Origin: Botryllus schlosseri
Lineage: Eukaryota
Reading direction: 5' to 3'
DNA length: 64,000 nucleotides
Assembly (NCBI GenBank): GCA_051294905.1
Contig: CM119371.1
Span: forward strand, 10,604,001-10,668,000
Shown: one piece after another, positions 42,285 to 59,957 of the stretch
Layout: the number at the start of each line of letters is the position of its first letter
Numbering within the stretch: position 1 is the stretch's first letter
Notes under the pieces: model-generated
Database searches by the model: none
What the model was told of the DNA's origin: nothing
Seen by the model: the letters and a program-made list of their open reading frames with translations, nothing else
Translations under genes and position numbers: made by a program

Positions 42285-42345
42285 ATGAACCAGAGGGGCG
42301 AATCTGTGTACGAAGAAGGATATCTCGATATTTACGAAACCGCAA
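42285..42345 (+). CDS. Intelectin-like gene exon 1 ([20 protein letters not shown])
   Basis: aaaATG start; donor A|gtaaag in phase 1 matches the next exon's phase. Confidence 0.7.
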
Positions 42346-57300: not shown

Positions 57301-59957
57301 TATTATTTCAAATCGAATTCTGCAACTGCATTTCTTGAAATATACGTGGTCGTGTCTTGAAAATCCGCGCTTTCGATTTGATATGAACGAGTACCGAAAA
57401 TCTATTTGCACAAACATATGTGGTGGCGAATGTAATATTAGCACATAACGCTTCCGACGACGCATATGGGTATAATCGCAACAAATATGGCACCAAAATT
57501 GACAAGCAAATGATAATGAATATATACCGTCAAGCCTGGTCTTTTCTATCTAGCATTCTAGCAGCTTATCTTGAAGTTATCATGGAAAATGGTTATGTAG
57601 GGGAGATGTGGTACCGATGGATCAAAAATTGGAAAATGATCGCTGGCTCCAAAATGTTCAGCCGAAAACAGCAGATCTTTTGCTGGCTCAGCACTTTGAT
57701 ACAATCTCTACCTATCGCGCACATATACATGAATATCCGTCTTTTCAAAAAATATTTATGGATGTTTAAAATTTGTTGCTCGAACGTGTCATCGGTCCCA
57801 ACCCGGTGGGTCCAATGGACACGACCCGGGGACCTATGACACATATACCCTAAAAAACTCAGATGTGACCACTTTTCTTGCTTAGTATTATAATCTAAGC
57901 TACAGCAAGCCAAAGAAGAATTTTCGGTCGCAACCGTCAAAAAATAGATTAAATATTGACACAAATGTTGTCATAAAATCACGTTTCGATTTAGGCTTGG
58001 ACTTATAAATTTGAAGGTACATACATATTGCCCGAAAATCGACAGTGTGACTTCCAAAGACCTCGTTATAGCGATAAAACATCATATACAATTATTACAT
58101 AAAGATTTTCTGTACGTAGTCATGTTTCATTTGTTTCATGATTAGTATGCTTGATTATTTTGCTTGATTTGGCTGTTGTATCATCGGTCCCCACCCTACT
58201 AATTTTGTACATGAATCGAAAAAAATCCACTCAAGGAAAGTACTGAAAAAAATAATAGGTTCTATTATATAGCCTGATACAAGCCCTAGACTTCACAATA
58301 AAAATGATTGCTGGTTTGTTTGTGTTGAAGGTTACAAAGAAAAATGTATATGTCGATATAAATTTAGTTTACACCCCCCAAAACAAAAAAACATCTGTGA
58401 GCGACCCCATAGTTCGCGCACGTCGAATTTTTTTGTATGTGAGGAAAGATGTTGCCAGTATGCAATTGTAGACAAGTTCACGAAGTGTAATCATGGAATT
58501 ATCATAGAGAATTTTCAAAGTATTTTCGGTCCCAGTGATCCATCGGTACCACATCTCCCCTATATCACAGGATGAAAACGATTTTTGTAAACAATTGGAA
58601 GACGCGTGATTGACCTTACTTATCAAACTTTTTTTTTCACAATTACCAACAAAACATTTTTAAACAGCAACATTTTTGTATCAGTAGGCTATTTGCAATT
58701 AGAATGAGTCTGCACAGTGTACAGTGTAAGGTATTTCATCTCAGATGGCCATTCTGTTAATGTGAGCTCTGTAGTTTTACTAGTACTGTACCGAAACTGC
58801 CTCGTGATTTTCTGAATTTCCAACAAAATTAGGTGATCAATTATTTTGAGGCTTCGTGGACCCCTACTCGTGATATTACGAAATATCAAAGAGAGAAATC
58901 AGACTGCTAGCAATCGCAACGGATAGTTTGATGGCATTGAAGGTTATATGGCTATTGAGGAGAGAATTCTCAAATATGCACTTCGAACAATAGACAATAG
59001 CTAATGGATATACCATGAGCTGGAAGTAAATCGCGCTAAGGGCGAAAAATTTCAGTTAACAGCAGCTTTGCGCCCCCCTTCGGATGCTTTCGCGTCCCGT
59101 ACTTTAAGAACTACTGCTATAGACAATGGTCTTCGTCATAATTGAAATATTTTCTAAACATTTCATCAAAACGTGATTGCTAAATCCTTTTTCTGACGTC
59201 ACAATTCTCAATCGCATAACGCGGAAAACTGCAGTTTTCGAAAATTCAAATGGAATTTGCCAAAAATCTAGACCTGATTGAAGAAAATGGATGACAGTTG
59301 TGGATTCAGCATCAAAAAGTATACTAAGAACCGTCAATACTGTAGTAACCTTGAAATTCACGCAGCACAGTATTATAAGTAGTTTTGTACGGTATATCCA
59401 AGCATTCTTTTGGATAGGCCTATATATAGACCTGTGAATGGGAGTGGACCAACAGTACTACTGAACAGGCTTAAACGTATGGTTTCTTCGTGAGGGCAAA
59501 TTCCACAACGTGTGAAAACAAGTGCGCGTCAGCAAGAAAGTTCATGAAAGCGGAAGCGATAATCTTGGTTCGACTGGTGTTCATGTGGACTATTTTCTGG
59601 TGCATGTAATTGCAACAAGTTATTAAATATGACTGACTCTCTCTAGTTCGCACACTAAGCAATGTTGCGAATATGTCATTCTCAATATGTGTTTTGTGGA
59701 CGGGGAACAAAATCGATTGATACATTTTCAGTTGCCCACTGGTAGTGTTTTTGAATTCAAATTCGTACTAGTACCCGAATTAATTTATGTATCTTTTACA
59801 TGCGAAATCGTAATTCATACTTGTCTTGTCAATAATGTCCTGATCTGCTTTCTTGAATTATTCAGGGAAAACGAATTGGGAAAATTCGATGACCTTTGGA
59901 GAAGTGAGAAAGTGTCTTCACGATGACTATAAAAACGCTGTGTTTCATAAAGTATCG
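42285..59957 (+). CDS. Type II transmembrane intelectin-like (fibrinogen-related X-type lectin) protein; 5' part only, 3' exons not found in the window
   Basis: Five exons join in frame: Tyr-rich N-terminal tail, TM helix, RPASCLEL...[28 protein letters not shown]...[15 protein letters not shown]...DDYKN. These match intelectin signatures (FCDM..GGGWTLVASVHEN, KC..GDRW, NW.N..TFG, DDYKN). Confidence 0.8.
42826..42998 (+). CDS. Intelectin-like gene exon 2 (basic juxtamembrane segment and [26 protein letters not shown])
   Basis: Acceptor gtttcag, donor gtaatc; K/R cluster before a 24-residue hydrophobic helix indicates a type II anchor. Confidence 0.8.
43381..45172. mobile_element. Non-autonomous hAT-like element with (TATGG)n subterminal repeats; contains a nested MITE at about 44206-44775
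   Basis: TIR cagggcatggtatggtatgg; perfect 8-bp TSD cgtgaaac. Confidence 0.9.
45360..45393 (-). ncRNA. Minimal type I hammerhead ribozyme (family A), in a solo repeat at about 45299-45485
   Basis: Minus strand reads accc-CTGACGA-G aatcagc C-GAA-AATATT-C-gggt; core intact. Confidence 0.78.
46897..47025 (+). CDS. Intelectin-like gene exon 3 ([43 protein letters not shown])
   Basis: Acceptor tcttccag, donor GAG|gtaagt; phase 0-0; start of fibrinogen-like domain (P.SC.E....SG.Y/H.I). Confidence 0.88.
48747..49350 (+). mobile_element. Penelope-like retroelement 3' fragment (frameshifted GIY-YIG endonuclease plus hammerhead-bearing terminal repeat)
   Basis: VY...[19 protein letters not shown] in one frame and [11 protein letters not shown]...F.I...GR....L.ALES.FI....P.LC.QKE in another are typical of the Penelope GIY-YIG domain; followed by a repeat found at several other sites in the window. 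Confidence 0.85.
49255..49288 (+). ncRNA. Minimal type I hammerhead ribozyme (Penelope-associated, family A)
   Basis: accc-CTGACGA-G tgtcagc C-GAA-AATATT-C-gggt: intact core, 4-bp stem I, palindromic stem III; predicted cut after C49284; about 100 nt downstream of a GIY-YIG-like ORF. Confidence 0.8.
50185..50784 (+). mobile_element. 5'-truncated CR1/L2-type LINE (ORF2 C-terminus, 3' UTR, (CT)n tail)
   Basis: H.HYTRS......LP......KRSI.YSG..IWNALP..IR....FKK motif; AATAAA followed by a ctctct tail. Confidence 0.8.
52251..53019. mobile_element. hAT-like MITE inserted in a tttaaaaca-rich element (about 52185-53380)
   Basis: TIR .agtggttctcaac; TSD ttttaaac. Confidence 0.8.
53599..53731 (+). CDS. 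Intelectin-like gene exon 4 ([33 protein letters not shown]...YK)
   Basis: Acceptor cttccag, donor G|gtatat; intelectin-type motif. Confidence 0.93.
54550..55487. mobile_element. hAT-like MITE; related interrupted copy at about 57083-58866
   Basis: TIR cagtggttctcaacc; perfect TSD ctctagtg. Confidence 0.9.
57600..58560. mobile_element. TA-flanked TIR element (Tc1/mariner-type target site) nested in a hAT MITE
   Basis: 25-bp perfect TIR ggggagatgtggtaccgatggatca, flanked by TA. Confidence 0.85.
59866..59957 (+). CDS. Intelectin-like gene exon 5 ([31 protein letters not shown])
   Basis: Acceptor attcag, donor gtgagt; phase 1 start matches exon 4; NW.N..TFG...DDYKN motif. Confidence 0.92.

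Follow-up and report, generated by a model that had tools for sequence, protein, structure and literature searches.

The window analysed here, a 64-kb stretch of the Botryllus schlosseri genome (C1:10604001-10668000 of a 495-Mb assembly), carries on its plus strand the beginning of a gene, starting at window position 42285, whose product we predict with high confidence to be a membrane-anchored protein with a split intelectin domain. Taken as a whole, the evidence is probably best explained by a type II split-intelectin receptor in which a tyrosine-rich cytoplasmic tail provides the coupling. The protein would reside on the cell surface, where its ectodomain, an intelectin fold together with a large insert, would bind an extracellular ligand, probably a glycan or a particulate one. 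The disordered, tyrosine-rich tail would in turn couple binding to the cell interior, either through phosphotyrosine docking or through sorting and endocytosis. As a predicted cell-surface receptor, it is an assignment towards which we lean.

Gene structure and transcripts

Within the window, five exons share one reading frame when joined, with AG/GT borders throughout and agreeing phases, and every protein string quoted in a preliminary description of this DNA, made from its letters alone, is present in them on the plus strand. Exon 1 (42285-42345) opens with an ATG, the first in a reading frame that itself opens after a stop codon, and runs for 20 further codons and one base, encoding the N-terminal end of the cytoplasmic tail, which is rich in Tyr and Glu; its donor (CAA/gtaaag, the slash marking the exon border) is in phase 1. 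An MNQ start, and YETA ahead of the equivalent junction, are held in common with the Styela proteins P0008, P0018, and P0031. Exon 2 (42826-42998; acceptor tttcag/, donor ACG/gtaatc) encodes the remainder of the tail, a basic juxtamembrane cluster (42879-42914), a predicted signal-anchor transmembrane helix of 24 residues (42915-42986), and the codons for EKQT. Exon 3 (46897-47025; acceptor ttccag/, donor GAG/gtaagt, both phase 0) supplies the stalk and the beginning of the fibrinogen-related subdomain, with its first Cys and the string SCLELRQNG, and is matched by the hidden Markov model (HMM) of the family with an expect value (E) of 1.5e-5. Exon 4 (53599-53731) contains the intelectin core motif, including VASVHE and KC..DDRW. 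On its own it matches intelectins in the PDB at E 4e-13 to 1.5e-11, and its product shares 79% identity with LOC144426847, a Styela clava prediction that is the sole protein matched by the exon 4 search. Exon 5 (59866-59957; acceptor ttattcag/ in phase 1, donor TCG/gtgagt in phase 0; family HMM E 9e-12), which extends from NWENSMTFG to DDYKN, is the final exon inside the window.

The preliminary description had closed the gene at 59957, which is the true end of exon 5 but not of the gene, as eight further exons follow outside the window. Similarity to the Styela protein extends farther downstream, and a search of C1:10668001-10708000 with tblastn and the family HMM placed these exons at 74795-94702 in extended coordinates that continue the window numbering. 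They comprise exon 6 (74795-74960), exon 7 (79820-79968), exon 8 (about 85672-85959, with an uncertain start), exon 9 (86629-86756), exon 10 (86822-86913), exon 11 (about 93536-93707, with an uncertain acceptor), exon 12 (94306-94391), and exon 13 (about 94584-94702, likewise with an uncertain acceptor), whose product ends in ...ILIFYR followed by a stop. Two alternative joins between exons 7 and 8 each preserve the frame, and the family HMM found no missing exon between them. The gene thus modelled occupies ~52 kb; its 13 exons have canonical splice sites and remain open in one frame, and its spliced form has 595 codons and a single terminal stop. The product can be aligned over its full length of 595 residues with P0008 of Styela clava (610 residues); this alignment and the match of exon 4 to PDB intelectins together make the exon set more than chance. 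The interval 42285-59957 accordingly holds only the 5′ third of the gene, which encodes tail, anchor, and stalk together with some 110 residues at the beginning of the ectodomain.

The five-exon gene start is real, and exons 1-2 are spliced to exon 3, as the preliminary description had supposed. Among four RNA runs (X1, X2, X21, and X23) mapped on window positions 42200-60100, X2 yielded a 313-nt contig that covers 42844-42997 and then continues directly at 46896-47023, bridging the junction of exons 2 and 3, with one base that fits either side. In X1, a 222-nt contig spans precisely 42826-42997 and has 27 unplaced letters ahead of this stretch and 23 behind it, and a 266-nt contig from the same run covers exactly 53597-53730 without a difference, flanked by 93 unplaced letters before and 39 after. 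The exon 2 contigs differ from the window at 6 of 172 letters (X1) and 8 of 282 (X2), an identity of ~97%, compared with about 83% for exon 2 of a tandem paralogue, and thus derive from the window gene. The junction of exons 2 and 3 is the only one seen from both sides in transcripts; the others are backed by contig borders and homology.

It is extremely unlikely that the gene is an artefact of joining exons 1-2 from another transcript, or a decaying pseudogene. Such an origin would accommodate the very low RNA depth of X23, the long, repeat-filled introns, and the uncertainty of some downstream junctions, but it is at odds with a contig that joins exon 2 to exon 3, with other contigs that end exactly on exon borders, with a 595-codon frame that stays open to its one terminal stop, and with an architecture conserved across four ascidian genera.

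Topology and the split intelectin fold

The N-terminal part of the window protein has the sequence features of a signal-anchored protein. The cytoplasmic tail of ~50 residues is Tyr/Glu-rich in its first 20 residues and K/R-rich in its last 12; these first 50 residues are hydrophilic, and a single hydrophobic segment (residues ~51-74) comes after the K/R cluster. The hydrophobic stretch, encoded in exon 2, reaches a Kyte-Doolittle maximum of 3.12 over 19 residues. The signal peptide that is a hallmark of intelectins is absent, in that inspection of the sequence finds no hydrophobic segment at the N terminus. An N-in topology is predicted because such a segment is lacking and because the 12 K/R-rich residues lie on the N-terminal side of the helix. 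In an AlphaFold2 (AF2) model of the Styela homologue P0008, built from a 38-sequence family alignment with a mean predicted local distance difference test (pLDDT) score of 85.7, the tail (1-49) and the stalk (85-100) are disordered, residues 52-85 form a long helix, and the ectodomain is modelled with confidence. From the sequence and the modelled helix of P0008, we infer a single-pass type II (N-in) membrane protein with an extracellular C-terminal domain, in agreement with the membrane-anchored arrangement put forward in the preliminary description.

The ectodomain is predicted to adopt the intelectin fold and groups with intelectins rather than with the FIBCD1/ficolin class, as had been proposed from the sequence at the outset. 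The grouping was judged by sequence and structure scores, given that FIBCD1 and ficolins align with the family over ~50 residues only. With phmmer, two stretches of P0008 (95-260 and 497-610) match human intelectin-1, at E 1.1e-43, compared with E 4.5e-7 for FIBCD1 over residues 105-153 only, a span of 49 residues. With VIA-align, its model superimposes on human intelectin-1 (4wmq_A) with a Z score of 39.6 and a root-mean-square deviation of 2.3 Å across 274 of 283 residues, at 34% identity over the model range 99-610, while fibrinogen-like proteins and H-ficolin reach Z scores of about 8. Foldseek gives the same division, with E 1e-22 and a target-normalised template-modelling (TM) score of 0.85-0.89 for human intelectin-1 versus E 1.5e-5 and a TM score of 0.34 for FIBCD1.

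The predicted fold is that of the vertebrate intelectins, among them human intelectin-1 (4WMQ/4WMY), Xenopus XEEL (4WMO), and the lamprey serum lectin (7E1E), whose conserved elements FCDM..GGGWTLVASVHE, NW.N..FG, DDYKN, and the C-terminal ...ILIFYR are retained in the window protein. However, vertebrate intelectins are secreted with the aid of a signal peptide, whereas the window protein would be held by its N-terminal signal-anchor helix, and it further differs in having a domain split by an insert and a tyrosine-rich cytoplasmic tail. A partial parallel is offered by FIBCD1, which, according to one report (PMC9994688), is likewise a type II protein with a short cytoplasmic tail, and which has a C-terminal ligand-binding domain with a fibrinogen-related N-terminal part; the window ectodomain, however, is not of the FIBCD1/ficolin type.

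The contiguous domain of ~280 residues that characterises intelectins is interrupted in both P0008 and the window protein by ~235 residues (P0008 261-496; exons 7-10 of the window gene), at a position that aligns with human intelectin-1 residues ~193-204. Pfam places the insert of nine out of nine family proteins in no family at E <= 0.1, apart from two sub-threshold matches inside it, to DUF4469 in P0006 (E 0.012) and to NAC in P0035 (E 0.009). In the model of P0008 the insert is mostly above a pLDDT of 90 and forms a large beta-sandwich flanked by helices. Its best fold matches are the supersandwich domains of glycoside phosphorylases, GH65/GH94/GH116 enzymes, polysaccharide lyases, and aldose epimerases (mutarotases), with Z scores of 7-9.5, in a range where values of 7-8 are common for models that have no clear match. 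The likeness to supersandwich domains, drawn from the P0008 model alone, is thus a lead rather than an assignment. A search of the ESM Atlas with P0008 residues 262-497 gave no usable lead (scores <=0.89; Atlas model pLDDT 0.49), and an AF2 model of the insert-only Clavelina protein P0158, built from 6 sequences, had a mean pLDDT of 60.6, too weak for a fold search. The module also occurs in tandem and apart from any intelectin part, in the secreted-looking Clavelina proteins P0158 (three copies), P0120 (with CUB domains), and P0094, and it is matched in seven stretches of the 1724-residue Ciona protein P0085.

The ligand site has diverged as well. At the positions equivalent to N260, E262, and H263, which we take to be ligand-site residues of human intelectin-1, alignments made with HMMER and MAFFT alone place Ser, Glu, and Tyr, respectively, in both P0008 and the window protein, so that only the glutamate is kept. 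Three further positions are described in one account (PMC12800186), where W288 and Y297 form an aromatic box and E274 is a binding-site residue. E274 is replaced by Val in P0008 and by Ile in the window protein, and Y297 is retained as Tyr in P0008 and becomes Phe in the window protein. In both proteins the residue opposite W288 is Gly, and two residues earlier there is a Trp in P0008 and a Tyr in the window protein. With two mapped site positions substituted, ligand chemistry need not follow the exocyclic-diol/Ca2+ mechanism of vertebrates and, judging from the alignment, may differ from that of intelectins despite the shared fold.

An ascidian family and the surroundings of the gene

The window gene belongs to an uncharacterised family that, by sequence, extends across ascidians, with the same architecture recurring in Ciona, Phallusia, Clavelina, and Styela. 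When LOC144426847 was searched against 5.8 billion proteins, 27 were returned at E <= 1e-3, the first 18 of which belong to the family (17 from Styela clava and one unnamed). P0008, searched without a profile against 1.84 billion representatives, returned 1718 proteins at E <= 1e-3, of which 61 reached E <= 1e-30. Among those that were looked up, all named proteins with a split domain or a free insert are ascidian (Ciona intestinalis, C. savignyi, Phallusia mammillata, Clavelina lepadiformis, and Styela clava), and nearly all are labelled "uncharacterized protein".

The N-terminal halves of these relatives vary. Some, such as Ciona LOC100185179, have a signal anchor and a tyrosine-rich tail. 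In P0036, P0039 (Styela clava), P0040 (Ciona savignyi), P0041, and P0048 (Ciona intestinalis), collagen Gly-X-Y repeats take the place of the transmembrane anchor, an arrangement reminiscent of ficolins in that the repeats precede the split intelectin domain of secreted proteins. The window gene, by contrast with ficolins, has a transmembrane anchor and no collagen stalk, and its predicted head domain is of the intelectin type with an insert. These secreted relatives, together with Styela models that have no transmembrane segment (P0004 and P0005), lend some colour to the idea that the window protein is a precursor whose ectodomain is shed from its short stalk as a soluble lectin, its tail having no signalling role; intelectins are indeed described as soluble in PMC9316650. 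We nevertheless regard shedding as distinctly unlikely, for no cleavage site is evident and the Tyr/Glu-rich tail motifs common to Styela and Ciona are hard to explain for an inert anchor. As a separate observation on tail variation, isoforms X2 and X3 of Styela clava LOC120328764 (P0015 and P0019) differ only in their first ~25 residues, one of them having an acidic, tyrosine-rich start (…KEYEIDDGLYTIDDG…) that the other does not, which suggests alternative first exons exchanging the tail tip.

In the Botryllus genome, at least 75 intelectin-like matches point to a large lineage expansion, with clusters of single-long-exon genes on C13, C11, C2, and C1 and of split-exon genes on C1, C5, C7, and C10. 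Two of the paralogues bear directly on the window gene. A tandem paralogue with the same exon order lies ~62 kb downstream (C1:10709151-~10750500; loci L013-L017); in the exon 1 region it shares 84% DNA identity with the window gene and retains YLDI, its exon 2 is 72% identical in protein, and matches to the family HMM extend to the C-terminal half. A second copy, paralogue B (C1 ~9989700-10010000; loci L018-L020), has a signal-anchor exon and an exon 1 that reads …AVYEEHLFDVYEAP.

The introns and flanks of the window gene contain several other features. Two stretches of intron 3, at 48767-49363 and 50558-51154, have very high read and contig depth in all four RNA runs, with many loose ends; they are repeats dispersed through the genome and transcribed at some place in it. 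Neither the intron 3 open reading frames at 48776-49153 and 50137-50496 nor those of intron 5 at 60665-61180 (minus strand, 171 residues) and 62078-62482 (minus strand, 134 residues) have a Pfam match at E <= 0.01. Farther upstream, a minus-strand frame of 158 residues at 6854-7330 has a sub-threshold match to PF10317, a serpentine seven-transmembrane chemoreceptor family (E 2e-4; 21.1 bits, where the cut-off is 22.8), and may be part of an unrelated membrane-protein gene. Local G+C content peaks at 18001-20000, at 0.47 versus ~0.39 around it.

The tyrosine-rich tail and its significance

The codons for residues Y9-E18 (42309-42338, plus strand) contain three tyrosines at a four-residue spacing, and around the central one the string EEGYLDI (42312-42332, residues 10-16) fits the pattern [DE][DE]G-Y-x-x-[LI] near the N terminus of a predicted type II protein. 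The pattern is that of the half immunoreceptor tyrosine-based activation motif (hemITAM). According to one paper (PMC11624271), the motif of Dectin-1 consists of the tri-acidic DEDG followed by a hemITAM, and CLEC-2 is a type II receptor with one. The window protein resembles the hemITAM C-type lectin receptors (Dectin-1, CLEC-2, and CLEC9A) in its type II orientation and its N-terminal acidic-G-Y-x-x-[LI] string, but differs from them in an ectodomain predicted to have the intelectin rather than the C-type lectin-like fold, and in that the motif is confined to the gene and its tandem copy.

It is on the question of conservation that the hemITAM, the centrepiece of the preliminary description, does not hold up. 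A degenerate DNA pattern for Y-E-x-x-Y-L-D-I-Y-E occurs in 2 places in the 495-Mb genome, the window gene and its tandem duplicate, and a control pattern in none; a DNA search with the exon 1 region returns the same two places. The 23 bases that encode GYLDIYET are identical in the two copies and are for that reason uninformative on selection. In paralogue B, a Leu stands in place of the central tyrosine (Y13), and Y9 and Y17 are retained. For a wider comparison, a script picked from 180 proteins 23 relatives with a tail of 20 or more residues and with a hydrophobic helix that precedes CDM..GGW, leaving out signal-peptide-like starts, proteins longer than 900 residues, and two fused Ciona models that start MTTSGGGW. 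Not one of these 23 tails contains [DE][DE].?Y..[LI], and any Y..[LI] is found in only two. Y.N is present in 14 and YE within the first 30 residues in 16, and ten (nine from Styela and one from Ciona) contain YE..[IVMG].[YF].N. To judge from these sequences, the conserved feature of family tails is a Tyr/Glu-rich tip with a motif of the YE..Φ.[YF].N type. An orthologue search with exon 2 (P0002, longer proteins) gave no match at E <= 1, and the tails compared include no orthologue from a close species. The hemITAM-like EEGYLDI thus appears to be a recent, lineage-specific variant of a tyrosine-rich tail.

These observations bear on two specific accounts of how the tail would act. By analogy with C-type lectin receptors, ligand clustering would lead a Src-family kinase to phosphorylate Y13, on which a Syk-family kinase would dock via its tandem SH2 domains. 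An acidic run and G-Y-x-x-[LI] close to the N-terminal end of a type II protein are what such a hemITAM receptor would have, and the tandem duplicate retains YLDI. Nevertheless, we judge this route quite unlikely, given a motif confined to a recent tandem pair, a Leu at the tyrosine position of paralogue B, the absence of the motif from all the related tails compared, and a pair of copies that offers no variation from which selection could be read. Of the pattern-recognition receptor envisaged in the preliminary description, the membrane-bound, intelectin-like part is well supported, and signalling through a hemITAM and Syk is a slight, lineage-specific possibility. Alternatively, YLDI could serve as a YxxΦ sorting signal, a pattern that it fits, in an endocytic or phagocytic receptor that would internalise bound material and thereby act like FIBCD1, but with an intelectin fold as its basis. 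We consider this account unlikely too, in that Y..[LI] is so rare among the tails and the family-wide YE..Φ.[YF].N is not a YxxΦ signal.

The preferred reading, of a type II split-intelectin receptor coupled through a tyrosine-rich tail, has to be set against several points that weigh against it. The window gene possesses the first half of the family tail motif (YETAI) and is without the second. The substitutions that the alignments show at N260, H263, and E274 depart from the ligand site of human intelectin-1, so lectin activity is not assured. The structural evidence comes from P0008, a 34% identical homologue of the window protein, and the insert fold matches are middling, reaching a Z score of 9.5 at most. 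Several parts of the gene model are uncertain, namely, the join of exons 7 and 8 with the start of exon 8, a possible 60-nt intron within exon 8, and the acceptors of exons 11 and 13. Expression is low, with near-zero exon depth in the bulk RNA run X23, of which ~6% was read; raw reads of the single-cell run X21 likewise have almost zero depth on the exons.

Proteins of this family are already public as automatic "uncharacterized" predictions, and we regard their conserved, receptor-like architecture as solid, on evidence that is computational throughout, and as undescribed. No paper on a transmembrane intelectin, a nested-domain intelectin, or an intelectin with a tyrosine-motif tail was found in the full-text literature, whose coverage leaves out most subscription journals. 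A more ambitious proposal, which we hold to be a long shot, is that of a hitherto unrecognised ascidian class of cell-surface receptors that combines an intelectin fold with a nested, carbohydrate-binding-like supersandwich module and phosphotyrosine wiring through the YE..Φ.[YF].N tail, in which one tandem pair has arrived convergently at a true hemITAM. If true, such proteins would be an intelectin-based counterpart of Dectin-1-type receptors in an invertebrate chordate; the hemITAM, the most exciting element of this picture, is the one that is not conserved. The family itself, found in four genera of ascidians, would extend the X-type lectins by a branch of membrane receptors and, with it, would bring in an unnamed extracellular module of ~235 residues that is also found alone in tandem arrays. 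It would further provide a testable route to how the recognition of glycans or particles may be coupled to the cell interior in invertebrate chordates without C-type lectin receptors.

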